In this document: positions 1-40,737 of the stretch, piece by piece
Layout: the number at the start of each line of letters is the position of its first letter
Numbering within the stretch: position 1 is the stretch's first letter
Virus record (IMG/VR): IMGVR_UViG_3300033984_000268
Coordinates: 24,359-88,358 of that record
From: a virus
Taxonomy: Duplodnaviria; Caudoviricetes
DNA length: 64,000 nucleotides
Strand: one strand, 5' to 3'
Made by a program: the position numbers and the translations under genes
Notes under the pieces: model-generated
What the model was told of the DNA's origin: nothing
The model's input: the letters and a program-made list of their open reading frames with translations, nothing else
The model's database searches: none

Positions 1-3000
1 TAATCTATTAACAACAGGATTGTTTTTAATTTTGAAAAAATTCTTAAACATATTAATAACCAAATTGGTATTGTTGTAAATACCAATTGGAGATGTTTCA
101 AATTTAGTCCACCATTCTGCAGGTATAGCTGAATGAACACTTTTTAATTTTGAAACGTCAGCAATATTTTTTTCAGCATCTGTTATATTGCTAATCTTTG
201 TCGTGTCGTATTTAGAAACTTGTGAAAACTTCGTTACATCTGCAGACAATTCTTCTAGTGCAACATATTGTGCAAAGATTTCAATGTCATCTTTGTTCAC
301 TGTAGAAGAACCGATTCGACCTTCAAGAAAGTTAGTTTCAAAAATAGAATTATTGGACGCTACATTGTTGATACCAAAAAAGGAATGCTTTTCGTATCCA
401 GCATCAAACAATTCTTTTTCATATTCTTTCTTTAAAATATCTAAAGCTTCTTCTCTAATTGCATCTGGTGATAAAGATTTACCGATTGGATTGTTTTCAT
501 TTAATTTTGAATACGTTCCTGATAATTCTTTTTTAATAGTATTATATCTAATCGTTAACGGATTAGAAGAAATATAAATTGCGTCATTAATTGGAACACC
601 TGCCATAACCATAAACAAAAGGTTCGGAGTATTCTCTTTATTACCTTGGATGTTAAACACCCATGCATTTTTACCAACATCGACATAACCGTTAATCAAC
701 TGTGAAATAATATCTGCTGTTAATTTTCCATCTTTTGCATAACGAGAACCAACAGATATTCTTCCATCAATTTCATTGTGATTTAGTTTTAAGGTGTATG
801 CTTTAAAATTATTAATATTCTCTAAAGCTTTTGCTTTTCTAGCACCGTTTGATTTTGGATCGTTGTAAATTTTTATGTCATCATTAAATTTTTCGAGATC
901 TTCTGTTTTAGCTGTATTTAATCTTGAATCAAACGTACTAAACATTGCAAAGAATGTAGATACAACCGCAGCAATACCCAAAGACTCCATACCAACAGAG
1001 TTCTCTTGATGTTTTTGCAAATTGTACAAGTAATCCATTACTGTTGTACGCGAGATTGAATCAGATTTATCAGCATGTATTTTTTCAAGTTTGTCATATT
1101 TACCAGCAGTAATTTTTGTTTCTAAAGCATTCGCTATTGGTAATACATCTCTTGTTGTATTCGGTGTAACCAAATCAACAAAGTTATCTTTAGCTAAAAT
1201 CTTTCTATTAAATAAATCAACCAGTTTATTCTCAAGTCCTTTTACAGAATGACCAACCTTCTTACGTTCTAATTCAGCACCAATTTCTTTTTGAGCTGCT
1301 ATCTGTTTTTTAATTGATGCTTTTTGTTTTTTGAAATTTTCAAATTTCGCACTTAATTCTGTAGAAAGGGTTCCAACATATTGCAAAAATATTCCATCAC
1401 GCAATGTATTGATTGAATCTATTTGTGTACTGATTTTGTCATATTCCGCTTGAAGCAATTCTTTGTATTCATTTGCAGCAGCTTTTCCAAGTTTAGTACC
1501 AAGATAAATTCCTGTTTTTCTTAACTCGTCGTATTGCTCTTTATATTTTTTACGTTCAGGATATAATAAATCTAATGCAGGTTGATACAACTCTGCTTTT
1601 TCAAATGCAACAGTTTGATCTTTAAATAATTTTTCAGACTCATCGTAAACTGCAGATAACTCTTTTTCTAAAGGCGTAATGTTTGATTCATAAAAGTCAG
1701 TGTACTCTGCAGCATAACGATCATAAGCACCAGTATCTCTACCGTAGTAGTTATTCAATTCAGGTTTGCTATTGATAATAGAAATACTTGGATACAAGAA
1801 GAACATTTTATCAATATCGTAATCCGCTCCTGATTTAGCCACAATCTCTGATGGTAAAATTACTTTTGCACCAGAATATTCAGGTAAAAATTCAGCAACC
1901 GTAACCGAGTCTAAAGCATTAGGTCCTTGTGTTGGGATACGAGTTCCAGGAAAGTTTAACAGTGCTTTATGTTTTGCATTCCATTCAGGATCTTTAATCG
2001 ATTCATTTAATCTTTTTAAAGATGCATCGTAATCCATAACACCTTTTTTATTTAAAACACGAATAGATTTTTTATCTGGATGATCTGCATATAATAATTT
2101 TTTGAAATCACCTTGCAATGAAATTTTAACTTCCATTGCAAACGTCAATGAACCATCTTCATCACGACTTTCATAAAACTTTAATCCATTTGTTCCATTA
2201 GCGTCTGCTTCCATGTCTGAACTTTCATACATAGCACCAGACACTTGAACCAAAGCTTCACCATTAACTTTTATTTTACGAAGAGATGAATCAATTAAAG
2301 TAACCACAATTTCTTCGATCTTCTGACTGTTTAATGAATATGATAAATCATCAACTAATCTACCAGAAGCATCCGTTAAAAAAGAAACTTCATGCGGCAA
2401 ATAATCATTTTTAATCATTTCGCGCTTAATGTAATCTGCTAGTTTTGTACTATCTCCTTCATACGTTCCTGTAGCAGGATTGTATTGGTAGTCAATATTC
2501 TCAAGCAAATCTTCTTTTATGTGATCTCTGTACGTTGTTAATATGTCAGTGTACTCTTTATACCATCCATAATTTTTAGATGCAGCAAGGCGTTCTTTTT
2601 CAGTTTTAATAGCCTTCCATTTAGAAATTCTATTAGCATCATCTTTTAAATAATCCATTGGTACACCGTTATCAGCAATACCATGAAGAATCATTTTTTT
2701 CATTTGTGTTGGTAATACTACCTTTTCTTTGTACCCCTCATCAATAAACACTTGATTTTTTAAATGCTTAACTGAAATTATATTTGGAACAAATTGTAAT
2801 TCAGCGTCTATAGACCGATCTTTTTTATAAAACGTATCTGGTTTTTTAACAATTACTTTTTTACCATCAGCATTAGTTACTACATCTACACGTGATAATG
2901 TTGAAAGTTTAGAACCTGATTGCATAGTTGCATAATCAATTCCTTGTTCCATCATTGATTTGTGTAATCCTTCAAGTTTAGTTCCTGCAATTTCATTTGG

Positions 3001-6000
3001 AATCAAAGGAGCTAATGAATACTTATGAAAAGCAGTAAGTCCTAAATTCATTGATTTAAACTTATCTGTTGTACTTAACGGTCCGTAATATTGAAACTTT
3101 TTTACTGGAAACGTAGAACTCATATCAGTTTGTTCAATAGTTTCTCCTTTAACAATTTTTTTATAAAGTGCTTCTTGACCTGAAGACCATTCACCGCAAG
3201 AGATATTTAATAACCTGTATGTATCAAAAGTTATCCAACCTTGACCATCTGCTTCTTCCATATCGTTATATGTAGCAGCAGTTTCTTTACCAAGTTTTTT
3301 TTCAAGTTCTTCTAAATATGATGATGGCACTTTAGACTCATCTAAAATTGCAGTTTTTAAATCGCCAGTATATTGATAATCGCGCTCAATACCCAATTGT
3401 TTAGCGTAACCAAAATTGTTAAATTGTGCATTATTATTTACAAAGTTTTTAAATGATTCATCCGATGCAAATATTTTTCCAGTGGAAATCATACCAGCAT
3501 TACGTTTGTGGAAATCACCACCCTCAATATTGTATAACGCCAAGTCACCTAAAAACAATGATGTGTAATTAGTATTTTGGATAAAGTTATTTACAATGTG
3601 GGCTCTAAAAATTCTACGTTTTGTATCAGAAATTGATTCATCTTCTACAGTTGTACTTTTATATTTCTCAATTAATTCATCTGGAAATACTGTATCTGAT
3701 TTTAATTTATTTAATGTTTCAGCTTTTTTACTAAAGTATGACTTCAAATTAGATTCAATGTTTTTCTTTAATTTAGAACTAAATTGTTTTCTAATATTAA
3801 ATGATTGCAGTTCGTCTATAGAAAGAGAACGAGCTAGCTTCAACAATTCATTTTTAGTATCAACATCTAAAATATCATCAAACAAAAAGAAGCTTTTACC
3901 GCGTTCAAAATACTTAAAATCGATTGCAAAGTTTTCAGGATCAATTAAAATTTCCTGTTCTAATTTTTCTAATCGAACCATTCGAATTAACTCTGCTTCT
4001 AAATGACCAATCATTTCATTACTTAAAATAGAACCAGCGTAGCCATCTGTAAAAATAGCATCAATGTCTTGCGCATTTACAATCAATTCTTTGGTTTTAC
4101 CACCAACAATTGAATTGTTTCTCATTTGATTTGCAAGAACCGTTAATGAAGAAGATTTTGCTTCTGTTCTTGGTATCTCTTGAGCACCATCTAATGTTAA
4201 TAATACATCAGATAAAAATTTTGTTTTTTCATCAGAACCAATTGAAGATATACCTTTATCTTCAGATGTCATATCTATCAATCTACCATCTGAATCAACA
4301 CGTCTTACAGTGTGTATTAATTTGGAACCAGATAAATTCTCAACTGAAATTCTAATACCAGGGTTTCTTTTACCACGCACAGTTGGGTTAAAGTGATCTA
4401 ATTGAAACATATCAACAAACCATTTAGAACCAGCAACAGAAGGATTTTCTAAATAATTAAATTTAGACATCCCTTGCATTGCAATTAATTCATCATAATG
4501 ATTTGCTTTATTTAAAGCCTGTACCTCAACTGTAAGCGATGAGTTTAATACTTTTTCACTTGCCTTCTCGCCATACGCTGTCATCGACATAAACGATGTG
4601 CTATCGCTTGAATACATTGAGTGCAGTTTGATCAAACTATTTATAAATCCAGCTTTTCCAATTTCATCAATTCTCACACCATCTTCATAGTAATAAAAAT
4701 CTTTTGCTAAATCAGATAAACTTCTAATTGCTACACCATTAATTGCATCTTGTTTTTTTATAAGAAAGTCAACAAAATAAGCATATTCACGAGGTTCAAT
4801 TTTTAAATCAGCAGAACCTTCTTTTAGTATCTGTTTAACAATTGGATCATCCGAAATATTAATTCCAAATAATTTTAAAAACTCTACTGGTTCTGCGTAT
4901 GCTCTCAAGGTTGCTGTTGGTGAAAACTGTTTTTGATTTGTTTTAGATAATTTTTTATAATCATCTTTTGAAATAGAACTTCCGCTATCAACAGACGCAT
5001 GCACTTCTTTTAAAAACTTCGAATGATTTTTATTTTCAAAAAAAGATTTAAGGTTTAATGTATATGGTGAAAATTTATTTTCACCTTGTTCTTTACGTTC
5101 ACCAATAATTTCTAATAACGATGTGAAATTATCATTCCAATCATTTTTAATAAATGTTTCGGATGCTGCTGTTCTACCTGAATGCGAAGTTGTACGACTT
5201 TCTACAAAGTTTTCATCTTTTTCTTCATTCGTATATGTAACAGTTTTTTCAATAATTTGTTCTCGTAATAATACGTCCGCTTTATTAAGCGATTGCCAAA
5301 ATGCCAGCCATTGATTCTGTTCTTCAAAGGTTGAAGAAGGTGAACCAGGATTACCAAGTTTAGCAACAAGTTCTTTAATCTGAAAATCGGTAAGACTCGC
5401 AGCAACTAATTTTTGATACATGTCATCGCGATCTAATGTATTCGTTAACAACTTTGCAGTTTTAGCAAGCATCGTTTTAAATGGTGCAAGTTTTGCAAAA
5501 CCTAATGCATTAACTTCTAATGTACCTTTACCATTTTTAGAATAAGAACTGATGGTACTTAAAAGCTGTTTAGTTTGATCATCAACTAATTCTGAAATTG
5601 AAAATTCAGCACCAGTTCTTTCAAAAATAACACGTTCATCATCTTCATATTTTTCTTTTTCAGTATTGACATAACTATACTCATTAATAAACAAAGATGC
5701 CATGTCACCATAAGAGTCTTGTTTAGTTAAGATTGTATCAATAGCATCTAAATTTCCAAAGTTCTGAACAGCTTTATTCAAAGTATCAACCGCAAATTTT
5801 GCTGAAAGATTGTTTGGTTCATCCTCTAATGTTAATTTGTGAATTGCAACTTGTTGTTGTAATCTTTTTTTAACAAAGTCTAAACCCATTTGTGTTAAAA
5901 CAGGATTATTCTGAATTCTAAAAATACCATAGCCATTATATTTATCAACATAAGATTTTTTAAAATCAGCAACAATTGCTTGAGCTTCTTCGTATTCTAA

Positions 6001-8598
6001 TTTATTAGTAATAGGATTAATTGAAGCTAAATGAGTCATAGCAAATATACCATTTTGCGAATTCTCATCTGTATTATCCATAGCATTAACACCTTCGGTA
6101 ACAAATTCAGTAAACAATGCCTGCATTGAGTCCATTACTAAATGTGTTTCTTCTAATGAAAAATTAAGTTCTTTTTGTAATTCAGCTGATTGATATACAG
6201 CATGTGAATCTCTACTGCTAAATTTAGAAACATCAATGTTACCTTCATACAAGTTATTAAACATTGCATTCGTTACACCTTGAACACGATTTAATGCTAT
6301 TGCATCAGATAGACGCATGTTACCAAACAACCCTTTTAAAAGATTAGATATTTTTTCAAAGAATTGTGATACTCTTGCTGAAAGTTTATTTGAATACTTT
6401 CCTTTTGACATAGCAAACTTACGGAACTCTTCAGCCAAATATTCTTCAAGTTCTAATTCATTTGCATTTGCAAAAGCAAGTCTTTTTTCAACACCTTTAA
6501 CTGTTACATCAAAGTATCCAGGTTTGTTTTTTAATTCAGCATACATGTCATTTCTTTCTACCGCAGTAAGTATTCCCATACTATATGCGTGAAATGATTC
6601 GTGGTATAAATCTGTTTTGCTAGAACCCAAATACATATTAATTGAATTACCCACAAACTCTGCTAAAAAGTTTGGACCAAATTCATGAATTTCGTCTGAA
6701 AAATTTACTTTCAGTACACGCAATAATGGATTAGTTTTCATCCATGCATCTGCACGCAATTCTTGTGCTTCAGAAACAGATTCTCTATTTTGAGATGCAA
6801 GTGATTGAAATAAACTTTTTCCTTTATAACTTTCTTTTACAGTATCAAGAACATCTATATTAGCTACAACGTCTTCAACCTGTTCAGTGAATGAAAGGTA
6901 TGGATCAGACGCTTTAAGTTCATTCTGATTGTTTAAATTATATACAGTCGAACCAATTTCAATAGCATTTTCTAATACCGTAGTAAGTTTTGTTTTAATT
7001 ACACCATCTTCAATACCAGTTATAACATGTATTAAACTATCAGGTGTTGATGATGGTTTTAAAACAAAATTTACAACAGGTGATTTTGAAATATAAAGTT
7101 GACCGTTATTGTAATATAATTGTTCAGATGCAGTTGTTTGTTCCAAAGAATCAAAAATCTTTACGTCAGATATATCTCCTTTTTTTGCATAAGGAACTCC
7201 AGTTTTTGTATAAACAAAAGTTCGCAATGCTTCTTTAATATCAGAAAAATTTTCTTCTTTTATTTCAAATAAAACATTTTGAATATAGACATGAGGTAAA
7301 GACTTTTTACCACCTTCTGGTGTAAAGAATTCAGTATATACTTGTTCTTTTGAACGCTGCACCAAACTTGTTAAAAGTTCATTTCTTTTTACTGTAGATT
7401 CAGCCCATACTTTATCATCTTCATTTTCTTTTGTTGTTGTAACAGTTGGTTTAAGATTTACAATTAACTCATATATTGCATCAAACTGCTCATTGGATAT
7501 TTCACTTAAAAGTTTACTATGAATTCTAATTGGTTTGTTAGAACCCTCTGCATTCATTTGTAACCAATAAGCTTTATCTTTTTTACCAATAGAGAATTTT
7601 AATTTAGCCAAGTTTGCTATGGACTTTAATGAATTTCTTTTATTAAGGTTATATACCATAACCCCATGATCACTATTCTTGTAATCAATATCTAAAAGAA
7701 TTGTTTTACCATCTGTAATTCTTTGTTTGATTCGCTCAATTGATTTTAAATAATTGTCAATTTTAGTTTCAATGATACGAGTGGCTTCCTCTATAGGAAC
7801 AGCGTTATTTTCTGCATAGATTGCAGGCAGTTGTTCCGATTGTCTTTGGAATTGATGTTTCTCTGTTTTAATTTTCATTACAGGAGAACTTCCTGTTTCA
7901 GAAACATTTCCAGCTTGATTGAATTTTACAATATTTCCTTTTGCATCAGTAAACAATAAAACTACAGCGCCATCTTTTATTTTAGAATATTCAGAAACAA
8001 CATCTGTTTTTGATAAAACATCCTGGCTTTTAAACGCTCTTAATTTTAAATCTGATGTTGGTGAATTTAAAATAGATAGTTGAACACTTTGTCTGAATTG
8101 AGAAATTCTTTTTTGTTCTGGTGTAGATGGAACATCTGATAACTCTAAATTTAAGTTATAGGTTTTGTTGAACTCTGAAGACATTGCATCAAATCCTTCA
8201 TGTATATTAACAACCGGAGGAAGTTGGTTAACCCCTCCGACCATTTTACCAAGTTGGTTAATGATGTTTGGAAACTCTCCATTTTCATTAACACTAGCTT
8301 CAATGATTCCATCACGTAATGCTTTAATGTTAAGAAATAAATTTTCATTTTTTTTAGTCATTGGCGCATTCATGTGCGCATATAACATTTCAGGTGCAAT
8401 CGTTAAATGCTGTAACACAATCTCTCTAGTCTTTTCTTTTGAAAAACCTAACTGTGGTTCAAAGTCAGACAACGCTTTGTTAAAAAGCATTGTCATCATT
8501 TGTTTTGCAGTAACATTTCCATCATAAAAACTTGGAATCTCTTTCTTAAAATAAGCAGCAAAAAGATTAATTGAATTCGGAGTAATACAAATATTCAT
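1..8598 (-). CDS. Giant virion-packaged DNA-dependent RNA polymerase (crAss-like), with N-terminal zincin-like domain; 3' end outside the window (>2866 aa)
   Basis: Not in the ORF track, consistent with having no stop in the window. Manual translation from ATG at 8598 gives MNICITPNSINLF. In-frame motifs: RIPTQG (~1925-1942), SGADYDIDKM (DYDID at 1810-1824), EADGQGWITFD (~3230-3257), HESFH (6589-6603) followed by EEYLAEEFR. These match the crAss-like/phi14:2 gp66-type RNAP pattern. Confidence 0.9.
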   Translation of the reverse strand, partial: MNICITPNSINLFAAYFKKEIPSFYDGNVTAKQMMTMLFNKALSDFEPQLGFSKEKTREIVLQHLTIAPEMLYAHMNAPMTKKNENLFLNIKALRDGIIEASVNENGEFPNIINQLGKMVGGVNQLPPVVNIHEGFDAMSSEFNKTYNLNLELSDVPSTPEQKRISQFRQSVQLSILNSPTSDLKLRAFKSQDVLSKTDVVSEYSKIKDGAVVLLFTDAKGNIVKFNQAGNVSETGSSPVMKIKTEKHQFQRQSEQLPAIYAENNAVPIEEATRIIETKIDNYLKSIERIKQRITDGKTILLDIDYKNSDHGVMVYNLNKRNSLKSIANLAKLKFSIGKKDKAYWLQMNAEGSNKPIRIHSKLLSEISNEQFDAIYELIVNLKPTVTTTKENEDDKVWAESTVKRNELLTSLVQRSKEQVYTEFFTPEGGKKSLPHVYIQNVLFEIKEENFSDIKEALRTFVYTKTGVPYAKKGDISDVKIFDSLEQTTASEQLYYNNGQLYISKSPVVNFVLKPSSTPDSLIHVITGIEDGVIKTKLTTVLENAIEIGSTVYNLNNQNELKASDPYLSFTEQVEDVVANIDVLDTVKESYKGKSLFQSLASQNRESVSEAQELRADAWMKTNPLLRVLKVNFSDEIHEFGPNFLAEFVGNSINMYLGSSKTDLYHESFHAYSMGILTAVERNDMYAELKNKPGYFDVTVKGVEKRLAFANANELELEEYLAEEFRKFAMSKGKYSNKLSARVSQFFEKISNLLKGLFGNMRLSDAIALNRVQGVTNAMFNNLYEGNIDVSKFSSRDSHAVYQSAELQKELNFSLEETHLVMDSMQALFTEFVTEGVNAMDNTDENSQNGIFAMTHLASINPITNKLEYEEAQAIVADFKKSYVDKYNGYGIFRIQNNPVLTQMGLDFVKKRLQQQVAIHKLTLEDEPNNLSAKFAVDTLNKAVQNFGNLDAIDTILTKQDSYGDMASLFINEYSYVNTEKEKYEDDERVIFERTGAEFSISELVDDQTKQLLSTISSYSKNGKGTLEVNALGFAKLAPFKTMLAKTAKLLTNTLDRDDMYQKLVAASLTDFQIKELVAKLGNPGSPSSTFEEQNQWLAFWQSLNKADVLLREQIIEKTVTYTNEEKDENFVESRTTSHSGRTAASETFIKNDWNDNFTSLLEIIGERKEQGENKFSPYTLNLKSFFENKNHSKFLKEVHASVDSGSSISKDDYKKLSKTNQKQFSPTATLRAYAEPVEFLKLFGINISDDPIVKQILKEGSADLKIEPREYAYFVDFLIKKQDAINGVAIRSLSDLAKDFYYYEDGVRIDEIGKAGFINSLIKLHSMYSSDSTSFMSMTAYGEKASEKVLNSSLTVEVQALNKANHYDELIAMQGMSKFNYLENPSVAGSKWFVDMFQLDHFNPTVRGKRNPGIRISVENLSGSKLIHTVRRVDSDGRLIDMTSEDKGISSIGSDEKTKFLSDVLLTLDGAQEIPRTEAKSSSLTVLANQMRNNSIVGGKTKELIVNAQDIDAIFTDGYAGSILSNEMIGHLEAELIRMVRLEKLEQEILIDPENFAIDFKYFERGKSFFLFDDILDVDTKNELLKLARSLSIDELQSFNIRKQFSSKLKKNIESNLKSYFSKKAETLNKLKSDTVFPDELIEKYKSTTVEDESISDTKRRIFRAHIVNNFIQNTNYTSLFLGDLALYNIEGGDFHKRNAGMISTGKIFASDESFKNFVNNNAQFNNFGYAKQLGIERDYQYTGDLKTAILDESKVPSSYLEELEKKLGKETAATYNDMEEADGQGWITFDTYRLLNISCGEWSSGQEALYKKIVKGETIEQTDMSSTFPVKKFQYYGPLSTTDKFKSMNLGLTAFHKYSLAPLIPNEIAGTKLEGLHKSMMEQGIDYATMQSGSKLSTLSRVDVVTNADGKKVIVKKPDTFYKKDRSIDAELQFVPNIISVKHLKNQVFIDEGYKEKVVLPTQMKKMILHGIADNGVPMDYLKDDANRISKWKAIKTEKERLAASKNYGWYKEYTDILTTYRDHIKEDLLENIDYQYNPATGTYEGDSTKLADYIKREMIKNDYLPHEVSFLTDASGRLVDDLSYSLNSQKIEEIVVTLIDSSLRKIKVNGEALVQVSGAMYESSDMEADANGTNGLKFYESRDEDGSLTFAMEVKISLQGDFKKLLYADHPDKKSIRVLNKKGVMDYDASLKRLNESIKDPEWNAKHKALLNFPGTRIPTQGPNALDSVTVAEFLPEYSGAKVILPSEIVAKSGADYDIDKMFFLYPSISIINSKPELNNYYGRDTGAYDRYAAEYTDFYESNITPLEKELSAVYDESEKLFKDQTVAFEKAELYQPALDLLYPERKKYKEQYDELRKTGIYLGTKLGKAAANEYKELLQAEYDKISTQIDSINTLRDGIFLQYVGTLSTELSAKFENFKKQKASIKKQIAAQKEIGAELERKKVGHSVKGLENKLVDLFNRKILAKDNFVDLVTPNTTRDVLPIANALETKITAGKYDKLEKIHADKSDSISRTTVMDYLYNLQKHQENSVGMESLGIAAVVSTFFAMFSTFDSRLNTAKTEDLEKFNDDIKIYNDPKSNGARKAKALENINNFKAYTLKLNHNEIDGRISVGSRYAKDGKLTADIISQLINGYVDVGKNAWVFNIQGNKENTPNLLFMVMAGVPINDAIYISSNPLTIRYNTIKKELSGTYSKLNENNPIGKSLSPDAIREEALDILKKEYEKELFDAGYEKHSFFGINNVASNNSIFETNFLEGRIGSSTVNKDDIEIFAQYVALEELSADVTKFSQVSKYDTTKISNITDAEKNIADVSKLKSVHSAIPAEWWTKFETSPIGIYNNTNLVINMFKNFFKIKNNPVVNRL

Positions 8599-8599
8599 A

Positions 8600-11500
8600 T
8601 TATTTACATTGAGTTTTTAAAGTTTCAATAATGGAATCTTCCACAAAAAGATCAGCCGCTACTGATGTGTCAAAGTTACTAAAAACATTTTGAAGCGCAT
8701 CTTTAATAATCTTTCCTTTTTTAGTCGAAGGTTTTGTTTCAAATGATTCCTTTTTTACAGGAACCTCTTCCGCAACCACATCCTTTATATTACTCAAAAA
8801 ATTCAATATATCCAAGTTTTCAAGGTTCGAAGTTTCAACATTAAACACAGAAATTGTATTTTTTGTAGCAGACATTATCTTGTAACGCGCGCCATCTTTC
8901 ATTAATACATCCTCTTTTGAAATTTCATTTGTATAAAATCCTTTTGATAATTTATCATCTACAAGAATGCTTTCAATTGTTGCAATTTGTTTATCAGAAA
9001 ATTTAGAACTTTGTTGTGAAACATATTGATAAACACCAACAGCATAAGCTAAAGATGTAGCCATAGGCCCATTTTTAATTTTAGAAACAAACTCCTTTTG
9101 CAATGGATGTGTTTCGTATGCTTTTTGTGGTTCTTCTTTTACATTTTCTTTAATGAATGCATTAACTAAAACATTTAATTCTTGTTCAACTTTATCTTGC
9201 TCTGTTTTTTCTGCAAGACCTTCCATGAATAAATCACGTTTAGGTTCTTTCTTTGGAGCTTCTTCTTTTTCATACAACCCTTCTGCAACAGCACGATTAT
9301 AAATTATACGTTCTGTTTCAGTTAAGTCTTCTATAGGACCAGTGTAACTACCAGTTTCAATAGTAAACAATTTAGAGTTATAGTATTCTTCCAAATATTT
9401 AAACTCATCCTCAATCATTTTTTGACCTTCTTCTGTAGAAAAGAAATCAATTTCTTCTGGCGTTCTTGGTTCCTCTTCAGTTGACAATACATCTTTCTCT
9501 TCAGTAACAAGTTTGTTTTCAATAATCTTGTTTTCTTTTTTGACTGATGGTAACGCTACAGTTCCTTTCAGTTGTGCTTTTGTACCATGCTCAATCGAAT
9601 ATATTGTACCAATTGGTTTATAACCTTTCTTATTGATTATACGAATACGATATGGATTCTTAACCTCAAGTAATTTTTTGTTTATTTCCGTAGCAATTAC
9701 AGGAACCAACATTCCTTTTCGTTCCAGTTTGAAAAACAAATCAACCAGTTCTTTTGTAGCCAATACTTCATTTTCGCTGAATTTTATATTATCGCTAATA
9801 CGTTTCTTTTCAGCAGTAACCTCACGTTTAAAATCACGCACAGATTTTGCAAAAGCTTCAGCTTCTTGTTTAAAAATCTTTGGATGGTAAATACTAATGA
9901 ATCGACCAAGGGCTTTTCCGATTTTAACGGATACCGTTTTAAGTTTTCCTTTTGCATCTTCTTCCTGGAACTCTAATGTACCAGCAGTTAATGTATCCAA
10001 GTTTGTTGATGTACTTGTAGCTCTTTTCTTTTTACGATCTTTTTTACGTTGGAACTCTTCTTCAGCGTCCAACAGTTCCATAAATTCAGCTTCGTAACGT
10101 GCTTGTGCTTCATCATCAAGTTTTTGTTGTGCTTCCAATTCCACTAGCATTTTCTTTTCAAAAATGAAATGAATTATTCCAGGAACATCTAATGCACGCT
10201 CTTTAAAAGCTTTAATCAAATCTTTACGTTCAGAATCTGTAAGAATTGATGTGTCGATTGTTAATCCAGATTTAGTTAACAAGTGATCCATTAACTCATC
10301 GTCAGACAATACATCTTTTACAGGTTTATCTTTACGTTCTTTACGTTCAGCTTCTACACGTGCAGCATTATCTTTTTGAGCTTGAGTTACAGCTTTTGCA
10401 TTTTGATTGTATTCTACAATAGCATCAATAAAGTCTTTGTGACCATCTTTGATGTATCGATTAATTACATTCATTTCCGACTCTGTTATGTTACCATGCG
10501 ATTTTCCAAACACGTTTGCCATAGCATATTGTAGCGTCAATGGAAATTGTTGATATGGTACGTTTTGATCATATATCAATGAACCATCTGCATTGTAATT
10601 AAAGTCATCTTCACTATATTCGATTGGTTCTAAAGAAGAATCTACAGGAGTATCTGTTACAACATTTGTAGTAGGAGAAACACTAACAGGTAATGCATCT
10701 AATTCTTGTTGTAATTGCTTTCTTTCGATAAGCAGTTTAGTACGTTCGGAGTTAAGCGATGTAATCTCACGACTCTTCGTTATAGTACCACTAGACAACT
10801 TACCAGCTATGTTATTAACCATAGCATCAATATTTCTAATTCGGTTCTGCAAATCAGCTCTTTCTTCAGTAGTATCATTTACTTCTTCAAAAGGCGTTTC
10901 AGTTTCCGTTTCTTCAGTTTCTTCAGTTTCCGTAGTAGGTGCAATGAAATCAGAAATAATCTCAACCGCATCAGGTTTAATGTTAGCATCGGACCAAAAT
11001 TCAAATTGAGTTCGGTCTTTTACTATCATCGTTGCTAACTCATCTACCGTTGTTAAAAAATCAAGTTCATCAACAAAAGCCACTTGTTGATTACCCATCA
11101 TCTTTTTAAACATTCTTTGAAAGAACTCTTTAAGTTTTTGTAAGAAATTACGATTAAGTTTTTGATTTATAACTCTACCAGCTGCAATATCAAACGCTCT
11201 TGCAACTAACTCATGGTGATATTGTCTTGTTCCAAGTTCTTGTTCTGTACCATATACTTGAATTACATATTCACGAATAGAATCATCACTAATAGCATTT
11301 GCTACTAACTGACCATATAAGTCAACATTATTCCTTTCAGCATCAACAAGGAATGGATGCAAGAACATCTCATGCAACATGGTTGTTTCATTCACATTAT
11401 CAGCAACGATGTATGCAGTATTAGTGTTTTCATCATAGAAACCAGCAGTATTAGCATCATCTAATTGAAAGAATATGTTTGAAACAGCTTCTATACCATC

Positions 11501-14500
11501 CTGTAAATTATCTGCATTTCTAGTTAACCAGTCTATCACAGGACCTAATTGACCAGCTTCATACGCAGTCAAGTCTTTTAAGTTCTCAATCAATTCAGAA
11601 ATAGATTCAGACTTATTATACACGTCACGTAACAACTGACTTAATGCAGGTGAATCAAATGATTTTCTTAATTCAATTACTCTGTCATTAACACCGTATC
11701 CACGAACAGCTTCAAATAATATATCAGCAAATTTTTGATGCATTGGATTTTTAAGACTATCTACTATCTTTTTAGCAACGTCTGTTGACGTAACAATTGA
11801 TACATTGGTTCCAAATTGCTTATTCAGCTTTCTGGCCATCTTTTCAAGATCCTTTAATCTCTTTACTTCAGTTTTAGATTTAGCGTTAGTAGAGGTACTT
11901 AATTTACGTTCTTTTTTAGGTTTAGTTTTTTCATCTTCAATCTGTACATCTATAGCTCCTGGTATATCCAATGCTTGAGATGCTATGTTAATACCACGAT
12001 CAAGCATTGTTCCATTAAGCGCAGACTCTTTGCTCAATGATGTCTTAACCATAATCATCATGTTTGTCCATAGAGAACGACGAGAAGAACTAACTTCATC
12101 TTTAACTTGAGCTAAAGTTGCTTGTAATGATTTATTATTTAATACTTCTATTATAAATTCTTCTACATTATTAAACATGGATAGTCCTTCTACATTCGCT
12201 GTAGGAACAGTTTTCAAAAACAACGCTTTGGTTTGTTCCATCATACGTGTAGCAGTAGCTTTCAATGTAGCATTGTCTTCAATGTTTCCGGCAATTTTTT
12301 CTTGAACTATTGCAGAAATAACTAAATTTTCAAACGATACCTGCGCATCTTTAAATTCAGAAGAAGCATATCGAATATCAATGTAAACAACATCTCCTAC
12401 TTTCATTACAGGAGCTTCCGCATTATCAGTAAAAATAAGTTTTGCTTTTGTAGCACTAACTGCTTTTAATAATTCACGTTCAGTGTTTGATAAGTCTTTG
12501 TTGGAAATTAATTTATTTAAAAACGCATCGCCTTCTTTTTCATTCAAATCAATCATCTGATTTAAAGTAAGGCCATATTGTTTAAGAATGTCTTTTGATT
12601 TACGAGTGTCTGTTTTAGAACGTGAATTTTTTCTAGCCAATCCATCTTTACCACCAGTAATAACTTTACCAGTTAAGTTTTTATAGAATCCTTCAACAAC
12701 ACCCTGTGCATATTTTAATTGTGCGTCAGTAGCTTCTTTTTGAGTCGCAATGTCATAAAACCTAGAAGGCATGATTCCTTTTTTCACAAGGTCATCCAGT
12801 TCAGTTAAACTGAAATAAACACCTTTTTCCGCCAACATCTGCATCATCTTGCTTGACTCTTTTCGAACTTGGAATGCTTCTAAAGAGTTACTGATGTGCT
12901 GTGTCTTGTTATCAAGAATATGATTAAGAACTTTTTCCTGTTCAGCAATAAAGTTTCCTGCATACGTTGGATCAGACAAAGTGTTTGCAAGTTTTTTAAA
13001 TGCCTTACCTTCTTTTGTTAGATTAATGTGGTCATATACTGAATCAAATGTACGATTAGCAAGTGCACGTTGTTCTTCTTTTGATAAACCACTTGTTTGA
13101 TCAAATGATGCTAATACGTCAACGTATGCATCAAACATATCATTATGATCACCTTCATTAAATTCACCTACTTCTGCTTTTTCAATTTTATCAACAGATT
13201 CTTTATATTTTTTTAATGCTGCAAGTTTAACAACAGCTTTATCATAGTCACGTTTAGCTGTACCTTTTAAATCTAATCCTTTGCTTCCTTCTACTTGTGT
13301 TTCTAACACTTCAATGTTTGTGTTCAATGAACTAGAATCCAATAATGAATCACGTTCAATTGTAGAAAGATTTAAAGACTTGCTTAATTTTTCATCCATT
13401 GCTTTATTTCTGTCCGCAATAGATTGAATGTTTACATTCGAAACAAGCATTTCTTTTTTAAGATTTTCAAATGCATGGTATCTAACTATATTAGCTCTAT
13501 AGTCCTTATCTGATGGACGTAAATCACTAACCGTAATTGGATTAATCATTTCATTTTGAATCTTGTCATACTGATCTTTATGTTCATTTACACGATCCGC
13601 TTTCTGTACAAGTTTAGCTCTAAAAGCTGCAGCATTTTGTTCAGTAATATCAGTTCTATTAAAAGCTTGATTTAATTCTTGAGGTGTTGCATCTTTAGCC
13701 ATGCCTTTCAAATGTTTTACAAAATCATCTTGCAAATCATTATCAAACATAGTTTGTAGTTGAAGACCAAACGCTTCTTGTTTTAAATCTTCAAGTTCTT
13801 TTGTATTACCGTTTTGAACCGCTTCTAGTATTTTATCCTGGATAGCCTTTTGTGCAAAGACTGGTTTTTTAATTTCCTGTAGGAAGGCGTGTTCATTTTT
13901 GATAAAAGCATTTAATAATTCAGCTTTAGCTTGAATTTGTTTGAACTGCGAATCTTTATCTTTTTTATACTGATCACGATTAAATGCAGCATTGTATAAT
14001 GTTTTGTTACCACCACCTTGAGTAAAATCAAACATTAAACTTTGCGCTGTATTAATTGGGCCCATAAAACCACCTATCAAAGCACCACCCAAAAATGTTT
14101 CCAATCCTGCAGGTTTTCCTTGATTATCAGCATTCATTACCCATTTTCCATTTACTTTAACTTTACCATGAAATAAAGAATTGTATGAACGATCAAAGTC
14201 TTCTGATAAAACATCCCATTGAGAACCACGTAACTGACGTTCTTGCTCTGTCTTACCGTAATAATATTTACTTGTGTTTGAAATCAAGTCTTGACCAAGT
14301 TCTTGCGAACCTTCAGATACACCACTTAATGCAAATTGGCCCCAGTATTCAGCAGCACCACGTCCACCACGTCCACCAAAAGCAACAAGTTTTCCACCAA
14401 TGTATCCTGGTTGACGAGCAACAACATTAAATCCAGCCTTTCCAATTTTATTTAATTTAAAAGCTCTGCTTAAAGCTTTTTCGCTTGTAAACATGTTATC

Positions 14501-15634
14501 AAGACCTAAAGCATTTGTTGCATAAATTAAACCAAAATTTGCTTTATACGTAGATGAATAAACGCTGTTACCACGAGAAGTAATATCATTTAATGCATCT
14601 GTAGAAAGACCTTGTTCTGGATTATCCTTATGCCATTTTTTCATTTCATCGTTAACAAATTCTTGACGAGCCATATTAGCTTCAAGTTTTGCTTCACCAT
14701 GTGACATTGTAAATTTACGAGCATCTCTAACAATAGCACCAACACCAACAGATAAACGTGCAAGACCATTAAGATCTTTTAACTTATCAGCAGTTCTTAA
14801 AAAATCAATTGTGTTAGCTGTAGGATTTATTGCATGAAACGCACCTTTACCTAATTTACTCCAAAAACCACGTGCAGTATTTACATCGGTAAGATGATCA
14901 AATGCACGAAAATATTTATTTGATTGCGAAGATGCTCTCCAGGCTTTACTTATACCATTAAAACCACGTTCTAAATTTTTAGCAGTTCTAGCCATTGCCG
15001 CTGTTCCACCAAGACCACCGCTTAAAAATGTACCAATGGCTAACAATCCTTCTTCTGCAGCAATACCGCCAATAATACCAGCAGTATATCCAGCAGATAA
15101 CATAGCATTACTGGCACTTCCTAATTTACCTTCACGTGTAGAAGAATAGGTTTTCATAATGTCACCAAAGTCTTCATAGTTATCACTAGCTGAAAGGGAA
15201 CCTTCTAAAAAAGTATCCTGTGCACCAATACCGGCAAGTTTTAAAAAACCTGTTCCAGCACGACCAATATCATCCCATCCATCTGTAGCAGCATTAAAAG
15301 CAGTGTTATTATCTTCATACGGATTAAACCCAACTTTACCAAATACATCAGAACCAAAAGACTTTAATCTTTTTAAATCTGTTTGTGTGTATGAAAAGTT
15401 TTGAGATTTTCCAAAAGACTCATTTCGTTTAGGATTTTTTTGTGCAACTAGGCTAGAAGCCTGGTTAAATAATTCTTGATTTTTTTTACGAGAATCAATA
15501 CCTTTCTGAATAAGTTCAAGTTTTTTTGCGTCTTCACCTGATAGTTTTTGTACAGGTTTATTATCAACATATTGAACATCTTTTGCAGATGCTTGATCTA
15601 CACCGCTGTTTTTACCAGTAACTACCTTTGCCAT
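8600..15634 (-). CDS. Giant internal virion (cargo/ejection) protein, 2344 aa, with Gly-rich hydrophobic segments and zincin-like domain(s)
   Basis: Long ORF next to the vRNAP gene. Possible membrane segments AGYTAGIIGGIAAEEGLLAIGTFLSGGLGG and FLGGALIGGFMG; zincin-like GFYD...LHEMFLH...HELVA; coiled-coil-like acidic C-terminal half. Confidence 0.75.
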   Translation of the reverse strand: MAKVVTGKNSGVDQASAKDVQYVDNKPVQKLSGEDAKKLELIQKGIDSRKKNQELFNQASSLVAQKNPKRNESFGKSQNFSYTQTDLKRLKSFGSDVFGKVGFNPYEDNNTAFNAATDGWDDIGRAGTGFLKLAGIGAQDTFLEGSLSASDNYEDFGDIMKTYSSTREGKLGSASNAMLSAGYTAGIIGGIAAEEGLLAIGTFLSGGLGGTAAMARTAKNLERGFNGISKAWRASSQSNKYFRAFDHLTDVNTARGFWSKLGKGAFHAINPTANTIDFLRTADKLKDLNGLARLSVGVGAIVRDARKFTMSHGEAKLEANMARQEFVNDEMKKWHKDNPEQGLSTDALNDITSRGNSVYSSTYKANFGLIYATNALGLDNMFTSEKALSRAFKLNKIGKAGFNVVARQPGYIGGKLVAFGGRGGRGAAEYWGQFALSGVSEGSQELGQDLISNTSKYYYGKTEQERQLRGSQWDVLSEDFDRSYNSLFHGKVKVNGKWVMNADNQGKPAGLETFLGGALIGGFMGPINTAQSLMFDFTQGGGNKTLYNAAFNRDQYKKDKDSQFKQIQAKAELLNAFIKNEHAFLQEIKKPVFAQKAIQDKILEAVQNGNTKELEDLKQEAFGLQLQTMFDNDLQDDFVKHLKGMAKDATPQELNQAFNRTDITEQNAAAFRAKLVQKADRVNEHKDQYDKIQNEMINPITVSDLRPSDKDYRANIVRYHAFENLKKEMLVSNVNIQSIADRNKAMDEKLSKSLNLSTIERDSLLDSSSLNTNIEVLETQVEGSKGLDLKGTAKRDYDKAVVKLAALKKYKESVDKIEKAEVGEFNEGDHNDMFDAYVDVLASFDQTSGLSKEEQRALANRTFDSVYDHINLTKEGKAFKKLANTLSDPTYAGNFIAEQEKVLNHILDNKTQHISNSLEAFQVRKESSKMMQMLAEKGVYFSLTELDDLVKKGIMPSRFYDIATQKEATDAQLKYAQGVVEGFYKNLTGKVITGGKDGLARKNSRSKTDTRKSKDILKQYGLTLNQMIDLNEKEGDAFLNKLISNKDLSNTERELLKAVSATKAKLIFTDNAEAPVMKVGDVVYIDIRYASSEFKDAQVSFENLVISAIVQEKIAGNIEDNATLKATATRMMEQTKALFLKTVPTANVEGLSMFNNVEEFIIEVLNNKSLQATLAQVKDEVSSSRRSLWTNMMIMVKTSLSKESALNGTMLDRGINIASQALDIPGAIDVQIEDEKTKPKKERKLSTSTNAKSKTEVKRLKDLEKMARKLNKQFGTNVSIVTSTDVAKKIVDSLKNPMHQKFADILFEAVRGYGVNDRVIELRKSFDSPALSQLLRDVYNKSESISELIENLKDLTAYEAGQLGPVIDWLTRNADNLQDGIEAVSNIFFQLDDANTAGFYDENTNTAYIVADNVNETTMLHEMFLHPFLVDAERNNVDLYGQLVANAISDDSIREYVIQVYGTEQELGTRQYHHELVARAFDIAAGRVINQKLNRNFLQKLKEFFQRMFKKMMGNQQVAFVDELDFLTTVDELATMIVKDRTQFEFWSDANIKPDAVEIISDFIAPTTETEETEETETETPFEEVNDTTEERADLQNRIRNIDAMVNNIAGKLSSGTITKSREITSLNSERTKLLIERKQLQQELDALPVSVSPTTNVVTDTPVDSSLEPIEYSEDDFNYNADGSLIYDQNVPYQQFPLTLQYAMANVFGKSHGNITESEMNVINRYIKDGHKDFIDAIVEYNQNAKAVTQAQKDNAARVEAERKERKDKPVKDVLSDDELMDHLLTKSGLTIDTSILTDSERKDLIKAFKERALDVPGIIHFIFEKKMLVELEAQQKLDDEAQARYEAEFMELLDAEEEFQRKKDRKKKRATSTSTNLDTLTAGTLEFQEEDAKGKLKTVSVKIGKALGRFISIYHPKIFKQEAEAFAKSVRDFKREVTAEKKRISDNIKFSENEVLATKELVDLFFKLERKGMLVPVIATEINKKLLEVKNPYRIRIINKKGYKPIGTIYSIEHGTKAQLKGTVALPSVKKENKIIENKLVTEEKDVLSTEEEPRTPEEIDFFSTEEGQKMIEDEFKYLEEYYNSKLFTIETGSYTGPIEDLTETERIIYNRAVAEGLYEKEEAPKKEPKRDLFMEGLAEKTEQDKVEQELNVLVNAFIKENVKEEPQKAYETHPLQKEFVSKIKNGPMATSLAYAVGVYQYVSQQSSKFSDKQIATIESILVDDKLSKGFYTNEISKEDVLMKDGARYKIMSATKNTISVFNVETSNLENLDILNFLSNIKDVVAEEVPVKKESFETKPSTKKGKIIKDALQNVFSNFDTSVAADLFVEDSIIETLKTQCK

Positions 15635-15637
15635 ATC

Positions 15638-18004
15638 TTATTTTTCTTCTTGTTTTTGTAACTCCTTATATTGTTTCAAAGCTTCATAAAAATGTAACTC
15701 TGCATCATCCCATTTTGTTGAAGATACAGGACCTATGTTAAATTCCATTTCTTCAAATGAACCAGGCATGATTAACGAAGGTATTGAAGTTTTACCAACT
15801 AGCATACCATCTTTATTAACTATTTTTGATTGTTTAAAATCACGTGTATTCAATAAAGGTTTTTCACCAGTGTAATTGTATGTAAAATCAGAAGTTGATT
15901 CTTGAGATGCAGCATAATGAGGATCTTTAATTTTTTGCAATTGATCGTTTGGAATAAACATTGCCATTTTTTTACCAGTATCTTCATCTTTAAAAACATA
16001 AGAACTGAACTGACGATTGCCACCAGGATGCGCATAAAATTCAGCTGTTACATTTTCACCAGCAGTTTTAAGAAATGAATGTAATTTTTTTATAGTTTCA
16101 TCATTTTCTTGAAACTCATTTTTAAATGAATTTAATTTTTTGTCAATATTTTGATCGGTGATATAAACACCACCCTGGATATTTAAAACACTATTTTCAG
16201 CAGATTGATTATTAACCATTGATAAAACATTTTGAATGGTTTTAAATTTTTCCATGTTACCTGTTGAGTTTTTATTAGAAAAATCTAATCCTCTTAACGC
16301 AACAACTTGAGATGTATTGTTACCAAATCCACCAATTTTATTTCCATTTTTATCTTCAGATAAAACCATCAATGAATTTTTATATCGTTCAGAAGGATCA
16401 ACATCATTAAACTTTTTAACAAAAATTTTATTTAATCTATCGTATGCTTCATCATATTTTTTTCCATGTCTATTATCATCTTGAGTTATTTTCATACCTA
16501 CAGGTGACCAGTCCGTTCTGCCTTGATATGTATATTTACCATCTTTAAACGTCATTTCATCAAAGTTAATTTTAGCACCTTTATATGCTTTTTTCATTGA
16601 TTCTCTATTCACAGTTTGTTCAAAATCAGCACGAGATCTAACTCTACCATCTTTTGTTAAAAATGAATTAACAAGTGTATTTTGATCAACAAAATCCGAT
16701 AAATCAACATCTAAATTTTCACCATACATTTTTTCTTTTGCTTGGTTTCTTGATGCAGAATCTACTTTAGACCAATTATTAAATAATAAACCTGTACGAA
16801 CCATTCCTTGACGACCTTTTAAAATTTCATCTTTTTGTCTATCAACACCACCTTGATTAAAAGAAGCAGCAACTGAATCAGAATTACCATAAAAGTCATC
16901 GTGATTTAAAGAATCATGATGTTTGTCAAACAAATATTTAGTTCCATAAAAACCTAAACTACCTGCAAGTTTTGTAACAGCGTCACCTTGTTTTGCTAGA
17001 TATGCATATTTAGCTTTTGGATCTTTAATGTTATTTGCTTGTCTTAATATTCCTAATGCAACACCACGATCTTTATTTTTAGAATCTCCTGTAACAGTAC
17101 CGTATTTAGATACATGTGTCAATAAATCTGTAGTATATGCAAATGATTTTTGTGCATTATCTATATCATCTTCATCTATATCTTTACCACCAGCAGCATA
17201 CTTATTTAATATTTTTGATGAGTTAGCTGTCCAAGCACCCATAACTGGTGTAGAATATTTTAAATACGTTTGTTGTATAGCTTTTTCGTGATTAACAATA
17301 GTTTTATATCCTAAATCAAAATTAGTATCAAGTGTAGAACTCATTGCAGGAGCACCAGTTTTTTTATTCCATACACCAGATGGACCATCATGTTCACGAT
17401 CATAATCTTTTTGAGCCATGAATTTATTGTCTTCCGGACGTATAACGTACTTTGAATTGTTTTTAAAATTTTCTGGAGCCAATGTAGTTTTAAAATCTTG
17501 AAACGCGTTATATGCATTAGTGTATGTTGATGCCATGTCACTACCACCATCCTTTAATGCTTTTAGAAATGCAGTATTGTGCTTTTCTAAAGTCTTATAC
17601 TTATCAACAAAATCTTCAGAATATGATTTGTTTTTTTGTTTTAAGTTTGCTAAAACATTTGGAATCCCTACATCTATTTGTTTTAAAAAAGGATTGTTTT
17701 TATTAGGATTAGTTATCTGTTCAGTAATAGCTCTAGAAACAGCATCTGCTTGAGCTTTTTTAGAATTTTCAGCATATACTTTAGAAAATTGACCTTCATA
17801 CATAGAAGCTATAAAACCCATGTCAACATCTTTAGTATTAATACCAAGTTTTTTTATAATTGGTGCATAATCAGTTTCAAACTTTTTAGGTGGTTGAACA
17901 GCCCTAACATTTGCTAATGGATCTTTTAAATTAATTGGTGCTGTTGGAGTTGTAGTAGCAACCGTTTTTGGTGTAGCTCTAACATTTGCTAATGGATCTG
18001 TCAT
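15638..18004 (-). CDS. Putative internal virion cargo protein (788 aa)
   Basis: Long ORF in the cargo block; duplicated N-terminal DPLANVRA motif; no recognisable catalytic motif. Confidence 0.55.
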   Translation of the reverse strand: MTDPLANVRATPKTVATTTPTAPINLKDPLANVRAVQPPKKFETDYAPIIKKLGINTKDVDMGFIASMYEGQFSKVYAENSKKAQADAVSRAITEQITNPNKNNPFLKQIDVGIPNVLANLKQKNKSYSEDFVDKYKTLEKHNTAFLKALKDGGSDMASTYTNAYNAFQDFKTTLAPENFKNNSKYVIRPEDNKFMAQKDYDREHDGPSGVWNKKTGAPAMSSTLDTNFDLGYKTIVNHEKAIQQTYLKYSTPVMGAWTANSSKILNKYAAGGKDIDEDDIDNAQKSFAYTTDLLTHVSKYGTVTGDSKNKDRGVALGILRQANNIKDPKAKYAYLAKQGDAVTKLAGSLGFYGTKYLFDKHHDSLNHDDFYGNSDSVAASFNQGGVDRQKDEILKGRQGMVRTGLLFNNWSKVDSASRNQAKEKMYGENLDVDLSDFVDQNTLVNSFLTKDGRVRSRADFEQTVNRESMKKAYKGAKINFDEMTFKDGKYTYQGRTDWSPVGMKITQDDNRHGKKYDEAYDRLNKIFVKKFNDVDPSERYKNSLMVLSEDKNGNKIGGFGNNTSQVVALRGLDFSNKNSTGNMEKFKTIQNVLSMVNNQSAENSVLNIQGGVYITDQNIDKKLNSFKNEFQENDETIKKLHSFLKTAGENVTAEFYAHPGGNRQFSSYVFKDEDTGKKMAMFIPNDQLQKIKDPHYAASQESTSDFTYNYTGEKPLLNTRDFKQSKIVNKDGMLVGKTSIPSLIMPGSFEEMEFNIGPVSSTKWDDAELHFYEALKQYKELQKQEEK

Positions 18005-18028
18005 GATAATATTTTTTAATTATTTTTT

Positions 18029-19810: not shown

Positions 19811-19847
19811 CTTGTAATTTTTATAAAGGTATTAATTAAATGTAAAT

Positions 19848-33941: not shown

Positions 33942-33952
33942 AATTTTTTATT

Positions 33953-35974: not shown

Positions 35975-35976
35975 AC

Positions 35977-36639: not shown

Positions 36640-36657
36640 GACTAATTTTTTTCAAAG

Positions 36658-37251: not shown

Positions 37252-37253
37252 AA

Positions 37254-38696: not shown

Positions 38697-38706
38697 ATCT
38701 TAATAA

Positions 38707-39990: not shown

Positions 39991-40010
39991 AATTTTATTA
40001 TTTAATTTTA

Positions 40011-40727: not shown

Positions 40728-40737
40728 AATTTTTTAT

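Follow-up and report, generated by a model that had tools for sequence, protein, structure and literature searches.

Could the giant proteins carried inside a crAss-like phage be clipped together, end to end, through cysteines at their termini? The question arises at a gene junction in a stretch of 64,000 nucleotides, called the window here, which covers bases 24359-88358 of a phage genome consisting of a single contig of 88,358 bp (IMG/VR record IMGVR_UViG_3300033984_000268). The full genome was also read. An initial annotation of the window claimed that a protein of 2344 amino acids (aa) has exactly one cysteine, at its penultimate residue, that the next gene product, the virion RNA polymerase (vRNAP), starts with MNIC, and that the 788-, 731- and 953-aa cargo proteins have no cysteine, while external proteins are rich in it. 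It proposed that terminal cysteines link consecutive cargo proteins into a chain. Residue counts confirmed the observations: the sole cysteine of the 2344-aa protein is penultimate, Cys4 of the vRNAP is encoded at 8587-8589, the three cargo proteins are free of cysteine, and the small tail-module proteins contain 4.5-6.4%. A 593-aa cargo protein that the annotation did not list has two, at residues 128 and 134. The features are as follows.

8600..15634, - strand: gene of the 2344-aa protein, the proposed first chain member, without an N-terminal cysteine and without a Pfam or PHROG family
8606..8608, - strand: codon of Cys2343, the sole cysteine of the 2344-aa protein (penultimate, ..KTQCK); aca, reads TGT; stop codon at 8600-8602
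1..8598, - strand: gene of the vRNAP, the proposed middle member, first 2866 of 3840 codons; it continues to contig base 21434, and the protein ends ..DIKEC
8587..8589, - strand: codon of Cys4 of the vRNAP (MNICITP.., start at 8598), an invariant column in alignment A1 of 23 vRNAPs
3196..3198, - strand: codon of Cys1801 of the vRNAP, the only internal cysteine in the three proposed chain proteins, not conserved
1810..1824, - strand: catalytic D[FY]DxD motif of the vRNAP (DYDID, residues 2259-2263); D2259, D2261 and D2263 are invariant in A1
Contig 15359-21433, wholly outside the window: gene of the 2024-aa protein (MSC..), the proposed last member, an open reading frame (ORF) of the full genome
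15638..24888, - strand: genes of four cargo-type proteins (788, 593, 731 and 953 aa), free of cysteine or nearly so, with no terminal cysteine

Cysteines of the three giant proteins

The full genome extended the pattern to the next junction, as the chain idea had anticipated. The vRNAP (3840 aa) has cysteines at residues 4, 1801 and 3840, the last being its final residue, and the 2024-aa ORF that follows begins with MSC and has a single cysteine, at residue 3. The three consecutive giants together comprise 8,208 aa and have five cysteines, against about 105 expected at the 1.28% found in the other 48 ORFs of the genome. Four of the five are at termini that face a neighbour, and the outer ends of the proposed chain (the N-end of the 2344-aa protein and the C-end of the 2024-aa protein) have none. 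The fifth, Cys1801, is absent from the invariant or near-invariant columns of A1. An N-terminal cysteine was found in four of the other 48 ORFs. In a post hoc calculation, the probability that at least four of five randomly placed cysteines fall in the 16 junction-facing terminal positions was 7e-11. Chance does not explain the five-cysteine pattern, for which conservation in homologues gives independent support.

The late genes of this genome are all on the - strand, in the order terminase, portal, major capsid protein (MCP), tail genes (by PHROG matches), cargo proteins, 2344-aa protein, vRNAP and 2024-aa protein. The cargo block of the window runs 953, 731, 593 and 788 aa, followed by the 2344-aa protein and then the vRNAP. 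In a tblastn search the vRNAP matched g066 of phage phi14:2, annotated 'Catalytic RNA polymerase subunit', with 24% identity over residues 1666-2278 (E 3e-19), and 55 further records, nearly all of them crassviruses. The named phage closest to the vRNAP core is only 24% identical to it. The catalytic motif has been named DFDxD in the part of the phi14:2 preprint available to us (10.1101/2020.03.07.982082). Judged by motif and homology, the middle protein is a crass-type virion RNAP. None of the 56 tblastn matches was an N4-like record, and no comparison aimed at N4 gp50 or DEV gp71 was made. The N-terminal third of the vRNAP also carries an HExxH zincin-like motif (HESFH, residues 666-670; window 6589-6603, - strand), and Y665, H666, E667 and H670 are near-invariant in the 23-sequence alignment. 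In phi14:2, the available text of the preprint places a zincin-like domain in gp65 instead (10.1101/2020.03.07.982082).

The layout of the 2344-aa protein, vRNAP and 2024-aa protein matches the three-gene layout of phi14:2, and the flanking giants lie downstream of the portal, MCP, tail and cargo block. The 2344-aa gene has the same position as g067 of phi14:2 and gp47 of crAss001. Direct BLAST gave no match of the 2344- and 2024-aa proteins to g067 and g065 or to gp47 and gp49; from position, size and cysteine pattern, we regard them as the putative equivalents of g067/gp47 and g065/gp49, respectively. PHROGs and Pfam gave no family for the 2344-, 3840-, 2024-, 788-, 593- and 731-aa proteins. 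A PDB search returned nothing for the 2344-aa family and only 6vr4 (phi14:2 gp66) for the RNAP. A hydropathy scan for membrane helices was negative for the 2344-aa protein at the threshold applied and picked up a single weak segment in each of the vRNAP and the 2024-aa protein.

Conservation, junctions and split genes

The initial annotation had tied its proposal to the conservation of the terminal cysteines in homologues, and they are conserved. A search with the vRNAP core gave 205 matches, and the 120 listed (33-97% identity, 2,451-5,278 aa) were tabulated. Among the 120, a cysteine lies in residues 2-6 in 113, nearly always at position 3 or 4, and within the last 10 residues in 118. Exactly two cysteines are present in 79 of them, and internal cysteine amounts to 0.015%. 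Three of the seven homologues without an N-terminal cysteine lack a Met start, and one has a cysteine three residues past a second Met at position 10; the remaining three (2,739-3,610 aa) differ from the others at the N-terminus and are possibly truncated. The two homologues without a C-terminal cysteine are short (2,691 and 2,739 aa). Homologues enlarged by fused domains (SF1 helicase, 2OG-Fe(II) oxygenase, NADAR, AAA_33) to as much as 5,278 aa still contain only the two terminal cysteines. In A1, Cys3840 is an invariant column, as is Cys4. Exactly one cysteine, within the last three residues, was found in 20 of 22 homologues of the 2344-aa protein, a set that includes the window's own protein and one identical copy; the other two are shorter, have different ends and contain no cysteine. 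For the 2024-aa protein, a cysteine at residues 3-6 is present in all 29 homologues (21-97% identity) and is the sole cysteine in 24 of them. The terminal cysteines are therefore kept down to 21-35% identity, while internal cysteines are nearly absent and the flanks and offsets vary. The number of residues beyond the C-terminal cysteine is 0-9, and the number before the N-terminal one is 2-5.

Starting from the 23-vRNAP alignment, 74 loci, with flanks of up to 10 kb, were collected from IMG/VR, 69 of them non-redundant. A junction was defined as two adjacent ORFs of at least 500 aa each, and cysteine was scored within 10 residues of the facing termini. The 69 loci contain 115 junctions with cysteine on both sides, none with cysteine on one side and 41 with cysteine on neither, which is the enrichment and co-occurrence that a chain had led the initial annotation to look for. 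All 41 junctions of the last kind lie between a preceding cargo protein and the first chain member. Three of the gaps between non-adjacent ORFs hold a small link of 323, 209 or 468 aa. Each link has exactly two cysteines, the first at residue 3 and the second at the final or next-to-last residue. In loci L029 and L057 the vRNAP ORF is broken, which is likely due to a frameshift or an assembly error. The vRNAP of L044 is intact, and its flanking proteins match those of L029 in lengths and termini.

A second count with a different redundancy filter comprised 70 loci. Here an N-terminal cysteine was found in 0 of 50 complete first members and a C-terminal cysteine in 0 of 52 complete last members, and internal cysteines numbered 29 in 474,555 aa (0.006%). 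Background ORFs in the loci contain 1.56% cysteine, with an N-terminal cysteine in 9 and a C-terminal one in 17 of 148 (the three small links included). Complete chains have three members in 28 loci, four in six loci and two in the two broken ones; L051 has at least five.

Fifteen named genomes were also inspected, including phi14:2, crAss001 and p-crAssphage. Their patterns are as follows.

phi14:2: g067, 1797 aa, one cysteine, the last residue; g066, 2180 aa, Cys 3 and 2179; g065, 1421 aa, Cys 3
crAss001: gp47, 2341 aa, Cys 2339; gp50, 2412 aa, Cys 5, 1334 and 2404; gp49, 1349 aa, Cys 5
DAC15 and IAS virus: three-member pattern as in phi14:2 and crAss001, with the RNAP of IAS virus falling in two ORFs with Ns
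Intestiviridae (p-crAssphage, cr110_1, crAss002, cr3_1): a pair of members, the first with ..C at -1 or 0 and the second starting MSC
Suoliviridae (cr1_1, cr55_1, cr118_1, cr7_1) and Fpv1: a pair of members, the first with C at 0 to -3 and the second with a cysteine at 3-5

The upstream partner has a cysteine no more than 10 residues from its end in 14 of the 15 genomes. The downstream partner has one at residues 3-5 in all 15, in cr110_1 and crAss002 only with an internal start. In these two, an in-frame M-S-C lies 14 and 32 codons, respectively, inside the annotated ORF (cr110_1 gp40, L083 16761-30014; crAss002 gp33, L091 17088-29825). The internal M-S-C of cr110_1 aligns with residue 1 of p-crAssphage gp44, in an alignment that covers cr110_1 and not crAss002. 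The database start codons of both genes are probably too early. The two aquatic phages had less internal cysteine (0-0.017%) than did most of ten tabulated gut phages (0.017-0.33%), a small sample. The giant ORF of cr7_1 (L086) and of cr273_1 (L087) contains 148 and 36 in-frame TAG codons, respectively, and ends in TAA, as in TAG recoding. Internal cysteine in these two phages is about 0.3%, markedly commoner than in other crassviruses.

In crAss001, DAC15 and IAS virus the gene of the first member lies on the strand opposite to that of the other two genes, so the cysteine pattern is a property of the proteins and not of a DNA junction. A nucleotide-level junction signal was rejected on the same ground. 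Gene order, once taken as needed for a chain, is not essential.

The behaviour of split and fused genes is the most telling evidence for a chain. In L069, a 583-aa protein (Cys 4 and 581) can be aligned over its full length with residues 1-563 of a downstream protein that L068 and L071 encode unsplit; the unsplit form has 2352 aa, with cysteines only at 4 and 1647 and none at the L069 split site. In L051, a 1326-aa protein (Cys 5 and 1325) corresponds to the C-terminal portion of an upstream protein that is unsplit in L053, where it has 2719 aa and a single cysteine, at 2718. Similarly, L056 has a 782-aa protein (Cys 3 and 782) that matches residues 211-638 of an unsplit protein in L076, which has 2444 aa and a single cysteine, at 4. 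In these alignments, a new cysteine pair sits at the break of each split gene. The fissions in L069 and L078 lie at a similar module boundary and may be one event; the splits of L056/L059 and of the L051 upstream protein are at other places.

Fusions show the converse. In cr1_1 gp076, cr118_1 gp14 and cr108_1 gp54, a gp47-like part is fused to the RNAP, and the joint, mapped by blastp, has no cysteine. The 4551-aa cr1_1 gp076 has cysteines only at 4026 and 4548; cr55_1 gp070, which was outside the BLAST comparison, has the same length and cysteine positions. Fpv1 gp33 (4401 aa, a single cysteine at 4400) is, from its length alone, presumably another fusion of the first member and the RNAP. At the other junction, p-crAssphage gp44 combines the RNAP with a gp65/gp49-like part and has no C-terminal cysteine.

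How the facing termini may be joined

Given these patterns, we consider it fairly probable that terminal cysteines join the vRNAP head-to-tail with its giant neighbours in the virion, most simply by disulfides. The cysteine at the C-terminal end of each member would bond to the cysteine at residue 3-6 of the next, and the pair would stand in for the missing peptide bond between members. In this genome the order would be 2344 aa, 3840 aa, 2024 aa. The resulting quasi-linear thread, about 8,200 residues long, would behave like the single fused polypeptide of some relatives. More generally, in crassviruses and aquatic phages related to them, two to at least five separately encoded giants would be clipped end-to-end into a thread of about 6,000-8,500 residues. 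Cysteines within a few residues of the termini would keep the joint thin enough for the tail channel, and the near-total purge of internal cysteines would prevent wrong pairings. In crAss001, the channel is narrower than 50 A and inter-subunit disulfides occur in the tail and portal vertex, according to the sections available (PMC10172136). We see about even chances that the linked proteins act as a reversible, post-translational covalent 'polyprotein', ejected as one chain and falling apart in the reducing cytoplasm. Reduction by the host cytoplasm would then release free RNAP. The disulfide nature of the bond, its timing, ejection as one thread and release by reduction are what we infer from the cysteine pattern.

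Two-member chains bear on the order of the members. Each allows one heterotypic pairing, the C-end of the first member with the N-end of the RNAP in Intestiviridae and the C-end of the RNAP with the N-end of the last member in Suoliviridae and Fpv1, which by homology indicates a linear order in three-member chains. Every sequence-level test available supported the chain interpretation of the initial annotation, both at facing termini and at gene fissions and fusions. Its membership did not hold, as only the vRNAP and its two giant neighbours qualify. The 788-, 731- and 953-aa cargo proteins, which had been counted in, and the 593-aa protein are not members because they have no terminal cysteine, and the 41 preceding junctions have none either.

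The structure of two facing termini was predicted jointly, using the last 200 aa of the 2344-aa protein and the first 200 aa of the vRNAP. The score, which lends the junction weak support, was 0.55 (runs 0.78, 0.55 and 0.42), and the best of three controls scored 0.00. Solved complexes reach the mark applied in 116 of 157 cases and mismatches in 2 of 215; at 0.60 or less, only 18 of the 157 and both passing mismatches do so. The runs agreed in at least 28% of contacts, with a partner pLDDT of at least 59. The predicted fold of the 209-aa link protein of L051 had a mean pLDDT of 46.7, too low to judge its ends.

Several points weigh against a disulfide-linked chain. The evidence for it is comparative sequence and not chemistry, and the co-fold pass is weak and returned no interface. 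The sequences are related, and the ratio of 115:0:41 overstates the number of evolutionary events. In cr273_1, the exception among the upstream partners, the nearest cysteine is 49 residues from the C-terminus, which has a low-complexity tail. In Intestiviridae, smaller cargo proteins have a lone C-terminal cysteine and the next protein has no N-terminal one. A reducing assembly cytoplasm and an anoxic gut mean that a disulfide would need to form after packaging or release, inside the capsid. A scan of 41 ORFs, part of the ORFs of the phage, with Pfam found no thiol oxidase, reductase or thioredoxin. In the sections available of the crAss001 study, the disulfides lie in external tail and vertex proteins, and mass spectrometry on reduced and non-reduced virions is reported with no mention of a link among gp47, gp49 and gp50 (PMC10172136).

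Lone C-terminal cysteines were recorded in p-crAssphage (L005) at residue 856 of 857 in gp47 and 259 of 264 in gp48 (..RCGGHRR), and in crAss002 (L091) at residue 550 of 557 in gp30 (..RCGGKKK).

The both-or-neither rule says that two ends meet, not by which bond. The same junctions could thus be bridged by a metal ion (Zn, Cu or Fe) shared between the thiols, or the cysteines could merely stabilise a non-covalent handshake. A metal bridge could form in the reducing cytoplasm, the site of assembly, and in anoxic guts, and the co-fold weakly favours a non-covalent contact of the terminal regions (0.55 against 0.00 for the best control). However, each terminus offers one cysteine with no other conserved ligand residue nearby across clades, and sites made of two thiolates are uncommon and weak. 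Disulfide mis-pairing, unlike metal binding, predicts the roughly 100-fold purge of internal cysteine. We regard a metal bridge or handshake as rather unlikely. A single Zn(Cys)4 node of four termini was rejected, since chains with 2, 6 and 8 terminal cysteines exist. The terminal cysteines could also be unbonded to each other and serve as portal, capsid or tail anchors, packaging or processing signals, acylation sites or redox switches. The lone C-terminal cysteines without an N-terminal partner on other Intestiviridae cargo would fit such separate roles, as would the cysteines near the ends of tail proteins of this phage and the conserved flanks (CITPxS, CPN), which could be recognition motifs. 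Separate roles are nevertheless quite unlikely, as they do not predict co-occurrence at facing termini (115:0:41), the loss of both cysteines on fusion and gain of both on fission, or outer chain ends without cysteine.

The number of terminal cysteines, 2(n-1), is matched as well by another topology as by a linear chain: middle members closed on themselves N-to-C with the end members paired, or homodimers between copies. This topology leaves unexplained why the cysteine is always C-terminal in the first member and N-terminal in the last (0/50 and 0/52 exceptions) and why a pair is created exactly at a fission break. Moreover, the only heterotypic pairings of two-member chains are linear-chain pairs, and homotypic pairing predicts no both-or-neither rule. 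We judge such a topology very improbable. An artefact of chance, base composition, miscalled starts or a DNA or RNA junction signal might be suspected from the first two cysteine codons, which lie 19 nt apart around a stop/start junction, and from the two database annotations that start upstream of M-S-C. The value of about 7e-11 for this genome alone argues otherwise, as do protein-level conservation to 21-35% identity with varying flanks and offsets, the persistence of the pattern with partner genes on opposite strands and its persistence in TAG-recoded phages. We give an artefact next to no credence and take the comparative data to have refuted it already.

Known systems, implications and other features

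The nearest known system is the vRNAP module of crAss-like phages (phi14:2 gp67-gp66-gp65; crAss001 gp47, gp50 and gp49), which has a homologous vRNAP, the same three-giant layout and the same terminal-cysteine pattern. As far as the two sources could be consulted, the three giants of phi14:2 and crAss001 are packaged in the virion, and the RNAP enters with the DNA and transcribes early genes (10.1101/2020.03.07.982082; PMC10172136). In the available text of the phi14:2 preprint, the strings 'cystein', 'disulfide' and 'Cys' do not occur, the RNAP was crystallised in a self-inhibited state, and in some phages the three giants are said to be fused in one polyprotein, 'likely cleaved' (10.1101/2020.03.07.982082). 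The head-to-tail chain proposed here is the converse, separate proteins joined. The sections available of the crAss001 study do not mention a cysteine or covalent link between gp47, gp50 and gp49 (PMC10172136). A full-text literature search found no description of terminal cysteines or a covalent chain in crassvirus cargo; most subscription papers were outside its reach.

The N4-like phages share with this phage a giant ejected vRNAP, and internal cysteine is suppressed here as well (0.006-0.015%). Unlike them, this phage has several polypeptides and keeps cysteines at the neighbour-facing termini, so suppression is not complete. For Schitoviridae (N4 gp50; DEV gp71/72/73), the part of the source consulted attributes the suppression of cysteine in ejection proteins to the crossing of an oxidising periplasm; it describes no cysteine at all in the ejected proteins of N4-like phages (0.00075% reported) and the vRNAP as a single polypeptide (PMC11445570). 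Like crassvirus cargo, T7 gp14/15/16 and P22 gp7/16/20 reside inside the head and leave it through a short tail, partly unfolded, ahead of the DNA or together with it. To our knowledge, the T7 and P22 ejectosome proteins are non-covalent assemblies without a terminal-cysteine rule. They are cited as a model for crassvirus cargo in the available sections of the crAss001 study (PMC10172136).

Split inteins and trans-splicing likewise have a cysteine at the break of a two-gene protein. A split intein was rejected, as the 0-9 residues after the C-terminal cysteine and the 2-5 before the N-terminal one leave no room for it and Pfam gave no match. An intein requires N- and C-intein domains that are tens of residues long. 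AB toxins consist of only two chains, which come from one nicked precursor, are not joined head-to-tail and have their cysteines inside folded domains, and they are not viral. They offer a working analogy all the same, with no homology implied: in clostridial neurotoxins and diphtheria toxin, one disulfide tethers the unfolded translocated polypeptide and cytosolic reduction frees it (see also PMC6899712).

If true, the chain would give a testable answer to the question of how internal proteins of about 0.7-0.9 MDa are packed, ordered and pushed through a narrow tail in crassviruses, the most abundant phages of the human gut. It would impose a defined order and a 1:1:1 stoichiometry on the ejected proteins and provide a redox trigger for the release of the RNAP. 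It would also account for the varying number of genes (2, 3, 4 or at least 5) that encode the module in different lineages, with the genes free to split or fuse provided that a cysteine pair is gained or lost at the break. We know of no earlier head-to-tail heterotypic disulfide concatemer among virion proteins; this would be the first. The chain would extend the rule of 'no cysteine in ejected proteins' of N4-like phages. The cysteine pattern may aid annotation by marking true start codons, as in crAss002 gp33 and cr110_1 gp40, and by delimiting the giant ORFs of an ejected chain. The junction peptides are predictable from sequence, and cultured systems exist in phi14:2, crAss001, DAC15 and Fpv1.

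Further features were observed in these genomes. Many chain proteins have embedded enzyme domains, namely 2OG-Fe(II) oxygenase (PF13532), NADAR/DUF1768 (PF08719), AAA_33 kinase (PF13671), SF1 helicase and a Zeta-toxin-like domain (PF06414; homologues P0008-P0117, P0123, P0124 and P0131), which suggests variable effector modules delivered as part of the chain. A 132-aa ORF of the early region, outside the window (contig 11646-12044, + strand; L085), has a sub-threshold Pfam match to the ADP-ribosyltransferase exoenzyme family PF03496 (E 9.7e-5, 22.2 bits versus a cutoff of 23.4). The only cysteine pair of the 593-aa cargo protein (window 18029-19810, - strand) is a CX5C at residues 128 and 134, and its positions recur in homologues from L049, L056 and L059. 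A close pair is also present in crAss001 gp45 (390 and 398) and phi14:2 g069 (369 and 378). The CX5C pair may form an internal disulfide or a metal site. Finally, several tail-module proteins (window 32205-43416, - strand) have a cysteine no more than six residues from an end (MCIKCK.., MSDC.., MGCSSC.., ..TCS, ..ICCP and ..SCKIF). These cysteine-rich proteins recall the tail hub and fibre docking of crAss001, which are described as stapled by disulfides.

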